A DNA stretch of 53,190 nt from Elusimicrobiota bacterium (GTDB taxonomy: Bacteria; Elusimicrobiota; Elusimicrobia; Elusimicrobiales; UBA9959). Positions 45,001 through 51,000 of this stretch are shown here, piece by piece (within the stretch, counting starts at the first letter, position 1; every line of letters begins with the position of its first letter). Where the stretch lies: the NCBI GenBank assembly GCA_036574205.1, contig JAINCQ010000003.1, positions 1 to 53,190 on the forward strand. Reading direction: 5' to 3'. Made by a program: the position numbers.

Positions 45001-48000
45001 GTGATTTTTTTTATCCCCCAGTTATCCTCAGTGAGTATTTCCCCACCCATAGAGGATATAAGCTTTTTAGCTTTAGTTATAAGATCCCTTATGTTATTTT
45101 CTGTAAGTTTAGGATCCAATACAAGAATAATATCATAGCTTTTTACTGTCATAATAGAATAATTTTACAAAACTTTTATACGAAAATCAACTTTTTGCGC
45201 CTTTTTTTAATCTTTTCAACTAAAATGGTTGATTTATTCCAAATAATAAATTAAAATTTAAGGAAGGAGGAAAGTATGAATCCTGTTTTTAATTATTCAA
45301 AAGAATATCTTAAGGAAGTAGTCGATAAATCAATAGCCAAATTTGAAGAGAAAATCAAAATGATAGTAGGTTTAAAAGAAAGTGAAAGAAATTTTAAAAA
45401 TACAGTAGTAGCTTTTGAAAATGCTTTAGCTGATTTTTCTCAAGAAGTCAATATACCAGTATTTCTTGCTTACGTTTCACCAGATCCAGAGATAAGAAAC
45501 ATTGCTCAAGAGGTTGAGTTAAAGATCAGTCAGTATTCTGTTGAAATATTCACAAGAGAAGATATATTTAATGCCATATATAGTTATTCAAAAAATATAA
45601 AAGAAACTCTTAATGAAACAGATAGAAGGTTACTTGACAAATTCCTTTTTGAATTCAAACAAAATGGTCTTTTTGGCGATGAAAAAACGAGGAAGAAAAT
45701 AAAGAAATTATTGAAAAAACTAGTTGAGATTGAGATTGAGTTTCAGAAAAATTTAAGGGAAACAAGGGATTTTATAGAGGTTGATGAAAATGAATTAAAA
45801 GGGCTTGGAGAGAATTTTATAAGCAGACTTAAAAAATCCGAGAGTGGTAAATATATAATCACAACTGATTATCCAGAATATATTCCTTTTATGGAAAATG
45901 CTGAAGATGATGATGCAAGGAAGAGACTTGAAATAGTGTTCAATAATAGATGTTATCCCAAAAATGTAGAGCTAATGGAAGAGGCTATAAAACTAAGGCA
46001 GAAAATAGCAAAGGCTCTTGGCTATCCAAGTTTTGCTGATTATATCCTTGAGGATAGAATGGCAAAAAACTCAAGCAATGTTTTTGATTTTTTGAACAAG
46101 GTGTATGCCGAAGTTAAGAAGAAAGGTAAAAAAGATTTAAGGATGTTATGTAAAATAAGAAAACAGAAAACCGGAGTTGACAATAAAATTATTTATAACT
46201 GGCAGTGGAGATATTATTCAAATATTCTTAAAAAAGAAAAATATCAGATAGATCATGAGAAGGTAAGCGAATATTTCCCGCTTGAAAGGGTTATTACTGG
46301 AATGTTTAATATATTTGAAAAAGTTTTTTCAGTGAAGTTTGAACCTAAAGAGATGGATAAATGGCATAAGGATGTGAGGACCTATGAGGTTAAGGATTTA
46401 GGTGGAAATATCATTGCATATTTTTATTTTGATCTTTTCCCGCGCGATGGAAAATACAAGCATGCGGCATGTTTTAGCCTTGTAAAAGGAAGAGAACTTG
46501 ATGATGGAAAGTATCTTACTCCGGCCTCTGCCATAGTTGCTAACTTTACTCCTCCTTCTTCAGACAGACCTTCGCTTTTGAAATTTAGCGAGGTTGTAAC
46601 CCTATTTCATGAATTTGGACATGTTACCCATAATATATTCACACGGTCTAAATATGCAAAATTTTCTGGGACATCTGTTTCAAGAGATTTTGTGGAAGTT
46701 CCATCGCAGATGCTTGAGAATTGGGGATATTATGGTGAGGTCATTAAAGCCATATCTTCGCATTATAGGACCAACGAACCACTTGATGATTCAACAATTC
46801 AAAAGATTATAAGATCAAAAAACGCGACAAGTGGAATTTTTTATTTAAGACAATTATTTTTTGCATTTCTTGATATGATCTATCATACCAGAAAAGGAAA
46901 GGTTGATACTACTAAAATATATGAAAAACTTATGAAAAAAATATTTTTAATCCCTATGACTGAAGGGACTCATCCTCAAGCCAGTTTTGGTCATCTTATG
47001 GGTGGTTATGAATCTGGATATTACAGTTATTTGTGGTCTGAAGTGATATCATGCGATTTCTTTGAAGAATTTAAGAAAAATGGGATATTTAATGCCGAAA
47101 CAGGAAAAAGGTATATAGATTTTGTTCTTTCAAAAGGTGGATCAATTGATGAAGAGAAACTTGTGAAAAATTTTCTTGGAAGAGATATATCCTTTGAACC
47201 ATTCCTTACTCATATAGGAGTTAGGGAAGAAAGCAGGATAAAAAATAACATATGAGATATGAAGAAGATCTTAAAAATCTATTTGAGGCTACATTTAACG
47301 AGAAGGTTGTAAAATATGATTACATAAACTCTGATGGTTCTGCCAGAAAGATTTTGAGACTTTTCTCAAATAATAGAACTGTTGTTGGAGTATGGGGTCC
47401 AGATAAAAAAGAAAACCTTGCGTTTGTTAAATTTTCTTATTTTTTTAAGAATAATAATCTACCTGTGCCTGAAATCTATGCTTTTGATGAGAAAAAACAG
47501 ATATATCTTGAAACTGATTTAGGCGATAAAACTCTGTTTAGTTTTTTAAGGGAGAAAAGAAACTCAGCTGAGTTTCCATTGGAGGTTAAAGAGTTATATA
47601 AAAAAGCTCTTAAATATCTGGCGCTTTTTCAGGTAAATGCCTTTGTAAATTTTGATTTTAGTTTTTGTTATCCGAGAAAAGAGTTTGATGAACAATCGAT
47701 GATGTGGGACCTTAATTATTTTAAATACTACTTTCTCAAATTAGGTGGTATATCTTTTGATGAGCAGAAACTTGAAGATGATTATAAAAATCTTGTTAAT
47801 TTTATGAAAGATGCGCCAAGGAACTTTTTTCTTTATAGGGATTTTCAATCTAGAAATATAATGGTTAAAGATGGGAATCTATTTTTTATAGATTATCAAG
47901 GTGGAAGAAAAGGATTTCTTGCTTATGATGTTGCTTCACTGCTTTATGATGCTAAAGCAGAAATACCACCTAAAACAAGAAATGAGCTTCTTGAATACTA

Positions 48001-51000
48001 TCTTAATATAGATTGTATAAAGAAAGTGGTTGATAGATCTGTTTTTTTAAAATATTATTACTCATTTGTATACATCAGGCTTATGCAGGCTATGGGTGCT
48101 TATGGATTAAGAGGTTTTTATGAAAGAAAGCCCCATTTTCTGACAAGTGTGCCTTATGTTATTAAAAATATTGAGTGGCTTGTGTCAAATGTAGAACTTG
48201 AAATTAAACTGCCTGAGCTTATTAAGGTTCTTAAAAGAATAACCACATCAAGTTATCTAAGACAATTTGCTGATAAAAAAATGGGATTAAATCTTAGAAT
48301 CTATAGCTTTTCATACAAGGATGGATTCCCAAAAGATAATCAGGGACACAACGGTGGATTTGTGTTTGATGCAAGATGCCTATCAAACCCGGGAAGGGAT
48401 CCTTATTATGTGGATATGACTGGTAAGGATAGAGATGTTATTTTATTTTTCGAAAAAAACGAGGGGGTACAAAAATATTTTAAAAACTGCTTATCATTGG
48501 TAAATCAGGCTGTTGATAATTATCTATCAAGAAACTTTACAGAATTATATGTTGCTTTTGGTTGTACTGGCGGAAGACATCGCTCGGTTTATCTGGCTGA
48601 AAAACTTTATCAGGAATTTTCACACAGAGAAAATGTTAGATGTCATTTACGGCATTTAACCCTTGAAAGCGAAAAAACACTAAAATGAAATCTCTTATAC
48701 TTTGCGCAGGATATGGCACAAGACTAAGACCTCTGACTTATAAAATCCCAAAACCACTTGTAAGCGTATGGGGATATCCTATTATAGAACAAATAATAAG
48801 GAAGATTAACAAATATGGGATAAGTGAGTTTGCGATAAACCTTCATCATTTAGGTGATAAAATAGAGAGATTTTTAGTACATAAAAGACTTCCAATCTCA
48901 TTTCATTTTTTATATGAAAATCCAATACTTGACACTGGCGGTGCTGTAAAAAATGCCAGAGATGTACTTTCAAAAACCGATTTTATAATTCATAATGGAG
49001 ACATACTAACTGACTTTGACCTTGATAGGATGATGGATTTTCATCTTAAAGAAAAAAACGATATAACACTTGCCGTTATGGAAAGAAATGGTTCAAGAAA
49101 GCTTGCTTTTGAAGATGATATGCGGTTATGCGGGTGGACAAATTTAGAAAAACAAATTTTCGCTGGTGAAGTTACCGGGAAAAAATTATTTTCTTTTGCT
49201 GGTGTTCATATTGTTTCTCCTAAAATCTTTAAATATATGCCAGATGAGGATATTTTTGGTATTTTTGATTTTTATATTAAAAACATAAATAACCTTAAAA
49301 TACAAGGATATCCTATAAATGTAAAATACTGGTTTGATATCGGTAGTAGGGATAAATTATTAGAGATAAGAAAGAGAGTAATTGAATAATAAAAACAGAA
49401 ATTTACTTGATGTGCGAGAAAACCTCTTTAACGCTGTTTTCCTATTAGTCTTTGTTAATTTACAATAAATGTGTGATAATTTGCTAATTCTTTTTCTTGC
49501 TGCCTTTCATATATGCTTCTATCGGCACTTGTCAAGAATGTTGTGTCTCATTGTAAAACCTCATATTAAAGAGCTGTAAAAGTTCATATGCTTTGGCTTT
49601 CATTACAGCCGCAGCAGCCTTCCATTTTCCCTTGTTTTAAGTCTATCAATCTGTAGCATTATGTTAATCTCAAGGATATTCTTGAAACTGAAAGTAACCA
49701 GCAGGTCTTTTCCGGATTTGTGCTATTTGGCTGTTAAGATTATCTAATGCATTCTTTGAAGAAATAGTTTTTATTGTAAAAGATTAGTAATGTTTGCAAA
49801 AGATATTTTCATATGTTAGCATCAAGTTAATTTTTGCCTGAAAAACGTTTTTTTCTTCCGGCAGATATCGCATCTACTGGATTTTTTTTAGACAACAAAA
49901 GTCTTTTTAACTCAGTTTTTTTAAGCGGCTTAAGTGCATTTTCTGGAAGTTGGGGATAGACTGTTTTGATTACTGAGACAACCGTTTTATCAAGAGGTTT
50001 TTGTGGAGATTTTTTTTCTATAAGAGGAATAACTGCTGAACGCGCAATGTTTTTTATTTGTCTTTCAAAGTTAAAATTTTCAAGAAAATCTATAGATTTA
50101 TTATAAACTGCAGTATAGATTAGCCTCTCTTTGAGTGTTTTAAAGTTTTCTATTTTTACATCATAATTAAAACATATAATATCTTTTCCAACCCCAAGTT
50201 CTTCAAGAATCTTAAGTGCTTTATAACAATAATTTTCCTGAAATATTTTTATAAATTCATTTCTTATCCTTTCTTTTGAAAGCATTGATATATATTTAAT
50301 GGCTTTTTGCGCAGCTTTTAAAGTATTTTTTTCTATACTCCAGCCAAATCTTGCTGAAAACCTTGCTGCTCTGAAAATTCTTGTTGGATCGTCCTTAAAA
50401 CTATCTTTATGAAGAATCCTTATTATACCTTTTTTAATATCTTCCACTCCATTAAATGGATCTATAACCTCAAATATATCTTTATTTAAGCTTATAGCAA
50501 TAGCATTTATACTGAAATCTCTTCTTGTAAGATCTAATTCTATATTTTTAGTTTTTTTTACCTCAGGAAGTGATGCTGGTTTAGGGTATTTCTCTTCTCT
50601 AAAAGTTGCAAAATCAAATCTTTGATTTTCAGATAAAAGCCTTATTGTCATAAATCGTTTAAATTCATTTATTCTAAAACCAAATTTTTCCGAAAATTTT
50701 CTGGCCAGAATAGCTGGATATTCGTTAAATGTTACATCTATATCAAAGCATTTGGCGCCTAAGATCCAGTCTCTTACGCATCCGCCAACAAGGTAGGCTT
50801 TTAGTTTATGTCGATTTGTCGATATGAACTCTATCTTATCTAAACTGTTTAACGGTTTAATCTTCATCTATAAAGTCTATTTCTTCTTCTTCAATATCTT
50901 CAAGAACTTCTATAAGCCTTTTAATCCGCTTTAAGGTTTTGTTTTCTTTAAGTATTTCTGTTAATACTTCAACAACATCACCTTTATGAAGGCTCTTTAA

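Follow-up and report, generated by a model that had tools for sequence, protein, structure and literature searches.

The closest described counterpart of the locus reported here is the AmgK–MurU shortcut of Pseudomonas putida, Pseudomonas aeruginosa, Caulobacter, Legionella and Tannerella forsythia, with which it shares an APH-fold, AmgK-like kinase and a MurU-like nucleotidyltransferase of around 230 amino acids in a single operon. In Pseudomonas, MurNAc-6-P is converted to MurNAc by MupP. The two systems differ in that our kinase bears, or in split forms precedes, RapZ's C-terminal domain (RapZ_C), whereas proteobacterial AmgK (38–39 kDa) works without it, which makes RapZ_C dispensable for the catalytic reaction itself. 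T. forsythia has neither murA nor murB, and its AmgK and MurU homologues, expressed in Escherichia coli, are reported to turn MurNAc probes into cell wall (PMC5790795, PMC10941766, PMC13691567).

The second relative is RapZ, the RNase adaptor and GlcN6P receptor of E. coli, together with its Bacillus subtilis homologue YvcJ; with our locus it shares a tie to amino-sugar metabolism. The RapZ pocket is reported to bind sulphate or malonate (PMC5737377), the C-terminal domain alone to bind GlcN6P with a KD of 10 nM (PMC7073468), and the GlcN6P site is thought to be the C-terminal pocket (PMC9841335). YvcJ's role ‘is not characterized’ according to a 2023 review. At the locus described here, RapZ_C is coupled with a kinase of a different type as well as with a sugar-nucleotide enzyme, which makes the fusion a testable clue to the role of this poorly understood domain. 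No description of a kinase–RapZ_C fusion was found in the literature that we searched.

We analysed a window (the whole stretch of DNA under study) of 53,190 nucleotides from an Elusimicrobiota bacterium. On its forward strand, at 47252..48688, an open reading frame with zero internal stops encodes a protein of 478 amino acids in which an AmgK-like kinase is fused to RapZ_C; in the predicted AF2 model of the full-length protein (mean pLDDT 95.2, pTM 0.82), RapZ_C packs onto the kinase domain. The RapZ-like_N P-loop domain of canonical RapZ was not matched in the fusion, where an APH domain of unrelated fold stands in its place; a canonical RapZ (283 amino acids, RapZ-like_N plus PapZ_C) is encoded on another contig, C11. 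A preliminary description of this DNA had reported the fusion, a MurU-type gene next to it and the separate full-length RapZ, and our open reading frame and our Pfam and NCBIfam values are the same as those given there.

The reading that we favour, at somewhat less than an even chance, is that of a salvage cassette for an amino sugar of the cell wall, in which RapZ_C binds one of the pathway's own phosphorylated amino sugars and tunes the kinase. The AmgK-type domain would phosphorylate MurNAc, or perhaps GlcNAc, at C1 using ATP; the translationally coupled MurU-like enzyme would convert the sugar-1-phosphate and UTP to a UDP-sugar; and this product would feed peptidoglycan synthesis in parallel to the de novo MurA route. 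As a third, integral part of the module, RapZ_C would have GlcN6P, MurNAc-6-P or a UDP-sugar as its ligand and would adjust kinase activity to the pool of that ligand. Our data show the domain anatomy, the intact motifs, the conserved coupling of the parts and their distribution; we infer from these which sugars and ligand are used and in which direction control would run. The putative role of RapZ_C as an amino-sugar sensor that controls the shortcut to UDP-MurNAc, proposed in the preliminary description, is extrapolated from E. coli.

The kinase domain (residues 1–338; 47252..48265, forward strand) has an APH or protein-kinase-like fold and is closest to AmgK. Pfam APH matches residues 25–251 (5.7e-11), and the preliminary description had limited the kinase to residues 1–250; the domain in fact runs to about residue 335–338. 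The nearest solved structure, 3csv, a putative aminoglycoside phosphotransferase of Silicibacter sp. TM1040, aligns to residues 26–323 (phmmer 2.2e-17), the profile of our family alignment (69 sequences at 32–70% identity) aligns to the same chain over positions 19–327 (1e-30), and the kinase open reading frame of natural split forms ends at 335–338 amino acids. Unlike the fusion, 3csv is a single-domain protein of 333 amino acids without RapZ_C; it is also the top Foldseek match of the kinase domain (E 2.8e-13, TM by target 0.76), which further matches APH-fold kinases. The catalytic loop R196-D197-F-Q199-S-R-N202 (47837..47857, forward strand) and the motif F212-I-D214-Y-Q-G217 (47885..47902, forward strand) are intact, with R196, D197, Q199, N202 and D214 invariant in the 69 aligned sequences; the position of D214 is presumably that of the metal-binding Asp of APH-fold kinases. 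Among NCBIfam kinase families, the AmgK models alone match the 69 family members (NF045759 in all 69, best E 6.9e-29; NF045698 in 56, best E 4.8e-20), and the fusion itself scores 61 and 46.3 bits, below the curated cut-offs of 550 and 500, respectively. Judged from its sequence, the N-terminal domain is a complete kinase of the AmgK type with putative substrates.

The start of the next gene (48685..49389, forward strand) overlaps the stop of the fusion gene (ATGA). Its product of 234 amino acids is a minimal sugar-1-phosphate nucleotidyltransferase (Pfam NTP_transferase, 1.4e-22), within the size range of single-domain MurU-type enzymes (about 225–245 amino acids) and matched over its full length by MurU NF045761 (127.9 bits, cut-off 250; protein 1–229, model 1–224 of 226). 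NF045697 scores 71.5 bits (cut-off 370), and the top PDB matches are the MurU structures of P. putida (4y7t, 3.6e-22) and P. aeruginosa (8hhd, 5.9e-21). Because both enzymes, unlike those of the established shortcut, score far below the curated cut-offs (61 versus 550 bits and 127.9 versus 250 bits), the cassette may activate another, non-peptidoglycan sugar, destined for capsule, LPS or glycan, and resemble AmgK and MurU through common descent only; consistent with this, no other peptidoglycan-recycling gene is common to the 80 neighbourhoods compared. We nevertheless regard such a substrate as improbable, since AmgK and MurU are the best curated matches, and AmgK the sole one for the kinase, and since the gene context around the fusion varies and is not seated in glycan clusters. 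Moreover, the fusion gene is the only AmgK-model match in each of the 3 Bacteroidota genomes examined, of which one is labelled Tannerella sp., a lineage said in print to use AmgK and MurU homologues.

The three parts are coupled well beyond this genome. A MurU-like gene lies directly downstream of the fusion in 10 of 10 Elusimicrobiota loci (by a 46-residue match only in L005) and, among 80 diverse loci, downstream of it in 61, elsewhere within the locus in 1 and not at all in 18; among the genomes without an adjacent copy, all 5 checked encode a MurU-like protein elsewhere. A scan of 10 proteins of unusual length, taken from the 150 representatives listed, gave at least 4 APH–RapZ_C–NTP_transferase triple fusions, and 3 of the 4 are backed by 3–6 independent cluster members. 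Natural splits into three open reading frames occur as well; in all six splits the kinase comes first, RapZ_C second and the MurU-like protein third, and RapZ_C thereby persists as a stand-alone open reading frame between the kinase and MurU-like genes. Conserved adjacency, triple fusions and order-keeping splits strengthen the functional link between the three parts. The constant order would also suit an oligomerisation or scaffold module that dimerises as in RapZ and joins kinase to transferase with no ligand role, as would the invariance of D373, the equivalent of E. coli D182, for which the substitution D182A is reported to abolish self-interaction of the C-terminal domain (PMC7073468). 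A pure scaffold would have no use for the Cys-Thr-Gly-Gly-x-His-Arg-Ser pocket that is invariant across phyla, and we think this explanation unlikely.

RapZ_C occupies residues 340–478 of the fusion (48269..48685, forward strand). It is matched by Pfam PapZ_C (5.7e-31, residues 347–469), by NCBIfam RapZ (101.5 bits on residues 340–468, cut-off 244) and by the C-terminal domain of E. coli RapZ (5o5s, 1.7e-17), and the model of a stand-alone homologue superposes on RapZ with Z 19.9 and an rmsd of 1.8 Å over 125 residues. In an alignment of canonical and fused forms, the E. coli pocket residues C247, T248, G249, H252 and R253 are all kept, as are K170, D182 and R184; the exception is H190, which is Gly in the fusion. 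A five-residue insertion, N363–N367 (48338..48352, forward strand), precedes the glycines G368–G369, which are invariant in the family alignment; it marks kinase-associated RapZ_C, and both canonical RapZ sequences in the alignment lack it. Kinase-associated domains form a branch of their own (100/100) against 18 canonical domains.

The alignment of canonical and fused forms also shows that the basic C-terminal tail (KRK) that binds RNA in RapZ is missing from the fused domain. This bears on whether RapZ_C might retain the role it has in E. coli, that of an RNA-binding adaptor regulating an sRNA or mRNA. The same pocket residues are described as contacting GlmZ in E. coli (PMC9841335), but RNA binding is said to require the tail consensus (PMC7525490), nothing from Rfam matched near the fusion gene, and canonical RapZ was not found in the 151 sampled Bacteroidota genomes, in which RapZ_C occurs solely in the kinase/MurU-like setting. 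We therefore hold an adaptor role to be very improbable.

A reading of RapZ_C as a catalyst is nearly as likely as the one we favour. The loop C438-T-G-G-R-H443-R444-S445 (48563..48586, forward strand), the equivalent of C247..S254 in E. coli RapZ, has the form of a Cys-x5-Arg-Ser phosphate-binding loop, through which RapZ_C itself might work, with a phosphorylated amino sugar as its substrate, as a Cys-dependent phosphohydrolase or phosphotransferase. On this account, which we rate as possible yet short of probable, RapZ_C would be an ancient Cys-P-loop enzyme domain working on amino-sugar phosphates. Three enzymes would then serve one route, RapZ_C supplying either the missing MupP-like step upstream of the kinase (MurNAc-6-P to MurNAc), or a phosphoryl transfer, or the removal of a by-product such as pyrophosphate; we give these roles a similarly guarded chance.

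Conservation of the loop argues for catalysis. C438, H443, R444 and S445 are invariant in the 69 aligned family members and common to canonical RapZ, the whole loop being invariant across canonical and fused forms, and three sets of sequences carry the motif in 120 of 120, 140 of 150 and 120 of 120 cases. In the 10 representatives that deviate from it, truncation or garbling accounts for 5, and 2 have a C-x5-R-S variant. A Cys of such near-absolute invariance fits catalysis better than it fits an allosteric site, although two natural variants, P0212 and P0258, lack it. In the predicted model of the stand-alone homologue, the Cys closes a strand and, past the loop, the Arg begins a helix; the exact C-x5-R-S on a strand–loop–helix that binds sulphate or phosphate is shared with dual-specificity and PTEN/VSP-type phosphatases. 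Cys-x5-Arg phosphatases account for 7 of 50 VIA rows (Z 4.7–5.2; VSP, Z 5.2; DUSP28, Z 5.1, rmsd 3.2 Å, 88 residues), but these values fall within a plateau of Z 4.7–6.7 that includes P-loop kinases and PFK, so the structural matches show only a common arrangement. RapZ_C has no significant sequence or Foldseek match to these phosphatases, RapZ being the only structure that Foldseek returned, and no general-acid residue was found in RapZ_C.

Published work on canonical proteins also hints at chemistry, in E. coli at Cys247. There, C247S is reported to be inactive, the Cys ‘may fulfil a specialised catalytic function’, and the pocket was seen to contain GlcN6P as a ‘chemically transformed product’ (PMC9841335); phosphatase activity has been reported for full-length YvcJ and for HpaP of Xanthomonas (PMC7525490).

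The recycling genes of the host fit the salvage reading that we favour and, in part, the catalytic account. Its genome encodes AnmK, MurQ, MurA, GlmS and GlmU, and AnmK, which makes MurNAc-6-P, could supply the sugar by recycling, as in the AmgK–MurU shortcut. Unlike in that shortcut, no MupP equivalog was found in the genome (nothing above 33 bits, cut-off 359), which would leave a step for RapZ_C to fill, and its persistence as a separate open reading frame would suit an enzyme. The MupP model is very narrow, with no control genome reaching its cut-off, so another HAD phosphatase may do the 6-phosphatase job. All 23 fusion-holding genomes of our phylum sample encode AnmK, a co-occurrence that is not independent evidence because they are essentially one clade. 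Further against a catalytic RapZ_C, Bacteroidota that import free MurNAc have no need of a 6-phosphatase, and a separate gene for a SixA-like phosphatase is coupled to the fusion in 4 Chitinophagales-type loci.

The fusion family comprises about 750 clusters at 50% identity and at least 592 stretches in species genomes, with records from Elusimicrobia, Bacteroidota (Bacteroides, Parabacteroides, Phocaeicola and Tannerella sp.), Acidobacteriota, Gemmatimonadota and others. It is thus not peculiar to this Elusimicrobiota genome but very large and spread over several phyla, which the preliminary description had not recognised, and its conservation over hundreds of genomes rules out a chance or assembly artefact. 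In our sample of 201 genomes of the phylum, 23, including the one studied here (G000), hold the full-length fusion, and all belong to one class. The preliminary description had found the gene in most relatives but not in two genomes of family f2; the larger sample bears out the absence from most of f2 (58 of 59 genomes), although the family does hold one copy, interrupted by an in-frame TGA (G056).

Because the pathway offers few ligands, and because the sampled Bacteroidota show RapZ_C only there, the candidate ligands or substrates narrow to an assayable handful. The fusion also points to a third component, so far unnoticed, in the ‘AmgK’ of Bacteroidota; the Bacteroidota concerned include abundant gut commensals and probably also the source of the Tannerella enzymes that serve as tools for labelling cell walls. 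If RapZ_C were an enzyme, canonical RapZ and YvcJ would be primarily enzymes, with the role of RNA adaptor or sensor a secondary one in Enterobacteria, and the AmgK–MurU pathway of Bacteroidota, Acidobacteriota and Elusimicrobiota would have three catalytic parts, not two.

Upstream lies a gene for an M3 oligopeptidase of 659 amino acids (45276..47255, forward strand; Peptidase_M3, 1.1e-136; oligopeptidase A, 354.9 bits, cut-off 927), and its stop overlaps the fusion gene's start, again as ATGA. Among the 10 Elusimicrobiota loci, it adjoins the fusion only in L004, which is from the same genus, and it is context outside the conserved module.

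A single uninterrupted open reading frame at 47252..48688 (+) encodes a 478-amino-acid protein that joins an AmgK-like kinase of the aminoglycoside-phosphotransferase fold (Pfam APH, 5.7e-11, residues 25–251) to RapZ's C-terminal domain (RapZ_C; Pfam PapZ_C, 5.7e-31, residues 347–469). Against NCBIfam, the protein scores 101.5 bits for RapZ, over residues 340–468 only, and 61 and 46.3 bits for AmgK models with cut-offs of 550 and 500 bits. We thus recovered the same Pfam and NCBIfam figures as the preliminary description, which had reported this fusion with these domain spans and scores. 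Its AmgK-like kinase is present, but the span of residues 1–250 proposed for it is too short. The kinase is a whole enzyme that extends to approximately residue 335–338, because the alignment with 3csv, a solved APH-fold protein and the top Foldseek match of the full-length model (E = 2.8e-13), covers residues 26–323; because the profile of 69 aligned family members (32–70% identity to the window protein) aligns with 3csv across positions 19–327; and because the kinase frame stops at 335–338 amino acids in natural split forms. Invariant in the 69-member alignment are the catalytic-loop residues R196, D197, Q199 and N202 and D214 of ‘IDYQ’ in the kinase part, and S352, F353, G368, G369, D373, R375, N379, P380, G391, G437, C438, T439, G440, G441, H443, R444, S445 and H468 in the C-terminal domain. 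The AlphaFold2 full-length model (mean pLDDT 95.2, pTM 0.82), in which confidence falls to a minimum of 77–85 near the linker, suggests that the two domains are packed in a fixed arrangement.

The next gene (48685..49389, +) encodes a 234-amino-acid MurU-like protein, a putative sugar-1-phosphate uridylyltransferase (Pfam NTP_transferase, 1.4e-22) that matches the NCBIfam MurU model over its full length with 127.9 bits (cut-off 250). ATGA overlaps at 47252–47255 and 48685–48688 connect the fusion gene to an upstream M3 oligopeptidase gene and to the MurU-like gene, respectively, and these stop/start overlaps indicate that the three genes are probably co-translated. The M3 gene adjoins the fusion gene only within the same genus (locus L004). 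A MurU-like gene lies downstream on the same strand in all 10 Elusimicrobiota loci (the match in locus L005 comprises 46 residues only) and in 61 of 80 diverse loci kept from a scan of species-representative genomes, with a gap of ≤60 nt in 38 of the 61. It is elsewhere in the locus in one case and absent from the fetched stretch in 18, 4 of which have less than 1.2 kb of downstream sequence; full-length MurU-like genes (100–144 bits) were found elsewhere in 5 of 5 genomes checked that lack an adjacent copy. Clustering of neighbours across the 80 loci revealed no third conserved gene.

The same parts also occur in other states of fusion. Among 10 unusually long proteins picked from 150 representatives listed, 4 are APH–RapZ_C–NTP_transferase triple fusions of 733–816 amino acids, and 3 of these have 3–6 cluster members from several sources. 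Conversely, the module is split into separate frames in three of 61 genomes sampled from a single Bacteroidota family and in three of 151 genomes sampled across Bacteroidota; all six have the order kinase, RapZ_C-only frame (134–150 amino acids) and MurU-like gene on one strand, with stop/start overlaps in both of the loci that were inspected closely. The ESM Atlas holds further clusters of PapZ_C-only proteins of 154–177 amino acids. Across the 151 Bacteroidota genomes, sampled evenly, PapZ_C is present in 25 (22 frames of 476–530 amino acids and 3 of 134–140 amino acids) and no RapZ-sized PapZ_C frame was found; five Bacteroidota genomes each have PapZ_C matches solely in the fused or split gene. 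Together, the data establish a three-part module that has intact kinase motifs and an intact phosphate pocket, and that holds its parts together in fused and split forms alike.

The family is large. When all 1.84 billion representatives were scanned, 7,707 proteins matched at E ≤ 0.001. Of the 754 that reached E ≤ 1e-30, most are expected to carry both domains, as single-domain matches reach only about 1e-17. The species-representative scan gave at least 597 pattern matches, at least 592 of which encode a relative. Record titles of the 80 loci include Elusimicrobia, many Bacteroidota (Bacteroidales, Bacteroides, Phocaeicola plebeius, Tannerella sp., Chitinophagaceae and Sphingobacteriales), Acidobacteriota/Terriglobales, Gemmatimonadota, Ignavibacteriales, Opitutaceae, Eremiobacteraceae, Bdellovibrionales and an ‘uncultured proteobacterium’; the ESM Atlas clusters with the kinase–RapZ_C architecture are chiefly from Bacteroidota. 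With a Tannerella sp. protein as query, the matches listed include Bacteroides thetaiotaomicron, Bacteroides xylanisolvens and Parabacteroides distasonis (67–84% identity); none of the named relatives listed for this protein is Tannerella forsythia, most entries being unnamed. In the window's own phylum, 23 of 201 genomes, counting the source genome, have the full-length fusion, and they belong to a single class. Besides the source genome, 9 of 10 members of family f1 have it, as against 1 of 59 in family f2; outside that class, the matches in this sample are canonical RapZ only. Some copies contain in-frame stops and may be pseudogenes, errors or cases of recoding: one TGA in the sole f2 copy (G056:C12:60820-62232), one TAA in G246:C141:4457-5866 and four TGA in G239:C37:29736-31011. 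A divergent paralogue, a 458-amino-acid frame at G072:C25:68576-69397, matches the kinase part of the fusion alone (29% identity, residues 27–298).

The source genome (95% complete) encodes MurA (543.7 bits), GlmS and GlmU, all over cut-off, as well as MurQ (NF003915, 335.5 bits; cut-off 168) and AnmK (Pfam, 310.9 bits; NF007148, 366.7 bits against a cut-off of 387). AnmK is restricted to the class in which the fusion occurs. It is present in all 23 genomes of the phylum sample that carry the fusion and in 64 that do not, so that the co-occurrence amounts to a single clade-level association. In three of three Bacteroidota genomes checked, the fusion gene is the sole match to an AmgK model. MurA was not found in 5 of the 61 genomes of the Bacteroidota family sample (completeness not given); three of these have the full fusion, a fourth has two fragments of it, located at contig ends, and the fifth lacks any match. 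According to published reports, Tannerella forsythia lacks murA and murB, its AmgK and MurU function in Escherichia coli, and it is thought to rely on AmgK/MurU homologues ‘present in ... other members of the Bacteroidetes’ (PMC5790795, PMC10941766, PMC13691567). We infer that the cassette of kinase, RapZ_C and MurU-like parts probably yields a MurNAc- or GlcNAc-type UDP-amino sugar. That it serves another sugar, a reading that overlaps those for RapZ_C considered below, is unlikely, with model scores under the AmgK and MurU cut-offs on one side and the T. forsythia precedent on the other.

Aligned with E. coli RapZ and the RapZ of the source genome, RapZ_C in both its fused and its stand-alone form retains S166, F167, K170, G172, P174, D176, D182, R184, N188, P189, T199, G200, D202, G246, C247, T248, G249, G250, H252, R253, S254 and H276 (E. 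coli numbering). Unlike RapZ, kinase-associated domains have a five-residue insertion after D176, a Gly (then Arg) in place of H190 and no basic KRK tail. In an unrooted tree of 51 domains, one branch with 100/100 support separates 33 kinase-associated domains from 18 canonical ones, the latter a narrow sample of 17 from Elusimicrobiota plus E. coli. In YvcJ, the basic-tail consensus required for RNA binding is reported not to be conserved either (PMC7525490). An RNA-adaptor function of RapZ_C, devoid of that tail, seems highly improbable, far behind sensing or catalysis.

The pocket of E. coli RapZ is made of H190, H252, R253 and the T248/G249 backbone. For GlcN6P, the isolated C-terminal domain is reported to have a KD of 10 nM (PMC7073468). 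On this precedent, RapZ_C would sense a ligand and adjust kinase activity, an idea already put forward in the preliminary description; taken whole, with the cassette included, we hold this reading tentatively, as plausible and somewhat short of probable. A pure scaffold, which would leave the conserved pocket aside, is quite unlikely, and more so than either sensor or enzyme.

Residues C247 to S254 form C-x5-R-S, a signature of Cys-dependent phosphatases, and RapZ_C could instead be a Cys-loop enzyme, for example a MupP-like MurNAc-6-P phosphatase. In the model of a stand-alone RapZ_C (pLDDT 94, pTM 0.90), the Cys ends strand 91–98, the loop spans 99–103 and the Arg opens helix 104–120. Fold comparison (VIA) gave RapZ at Z 19.9 and, below it, a plateau at Z 4.7–6.7 in which P-loop kinases, PFK and DUF1537 stand alongside seven Cys-x5-Arg phosphatases, a weak signal that names no fold confidently; Foldseek returned RapZ only. 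Nothing in the source genome exceeded 33 bits for the MupP-like phosphatase model NF009696 (cut-off 359), a narrow model that no control genome passed. NTPase and phosphatase activities are reported for YvcJ and Xanthomonas HpaP (PMC7525490). None of the literature matches listed joins RapZ, YvcJ or YhbJ with CX5R or tyrosine phosphatases. By itself, the enzyme reading is somewhat unlikely; it and the sensor are the two serious readings, and their chances are close. The interest of the fusion is that it narrows the question of RapZ_C function to a few assays. The loop Cys is lost in full-length members P0258 (Cys to Ser) and P0212 (degenerate) and the Arg in P0208, possibly as inactive copies or sequencing errors.

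The APH–PapZ_C pair is already catalogued by Pfam and auto-named in the ESM Atlas. Our literature searches turned up neither a description nor an explanation of an AmgK–RapZ fusion; subscription journals and supplements, such as AmgK/MurU orthologue tables, may hold more.

In four loci (L058:5465-5965, L062:5475-5978, L067:5459-5965 and L069:5471-5971; two bear the title Flavipsychrobacter, one Taibaiella and the last Sphingobacteriales), the start of the fusion gene is adjoined or overlapped by a gene for a SixA-like histidine phosphatase of 166–168 amino acids (TIGR00249, 64 bits; cut-off 74.5). No MurU-like gene follows the fusion there; one occurs elsewhere in all three genomes searched. 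The target of E. coli SixA is NPr, the gene for which adjoins rapZ. In a Bacteroidaceae locus (L046:6217-7071), the gene after the fusion weakly matches BadF/BcrA-type ATPases (22.7 bits, below cut-off), a family that includes MurK/NagK-type sugar kinases. The separate normal RapZ that had been noted on contig C11 of the source genome is present (283 amino acids, RapZ-like_N and PapZ_C), in an overlapping row of HprK, RapZ, EIIA(Man) and EIIB(sorbose) followed by a GH57 glycoside hydrolase (C11:45859-49215).

A promoter and terminator scan performed no better than shuffles (24 versus 25.2 and 2 versus 1.9), and no Rfam family was found within 40000–53190. The sequencing runs listed comprise one DNA run, which may be the source, and no RNA run. 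A 437-nt gap (49390–49826), with neither an Rfam match nor a terminator-like site, separates the convergent MurU-like and CCA-adding-enzyme-like genes. The M3 oligopeptidase gene (45276–47255), oligopeptidase A-like at 354.9 bits (cut-off 927), has a strong GGAGG site upstream of its start. Farther along, a PLP-dependent (PALP) protein of 483 amino acids with long extra ends (51501–52952, −) matches cysteine synthase weakly (110.9 versus 350.95 bits) and is followed by a CpXC zinc-ribbon gene (50857–51501, −), the stop and start of the two genes touching.
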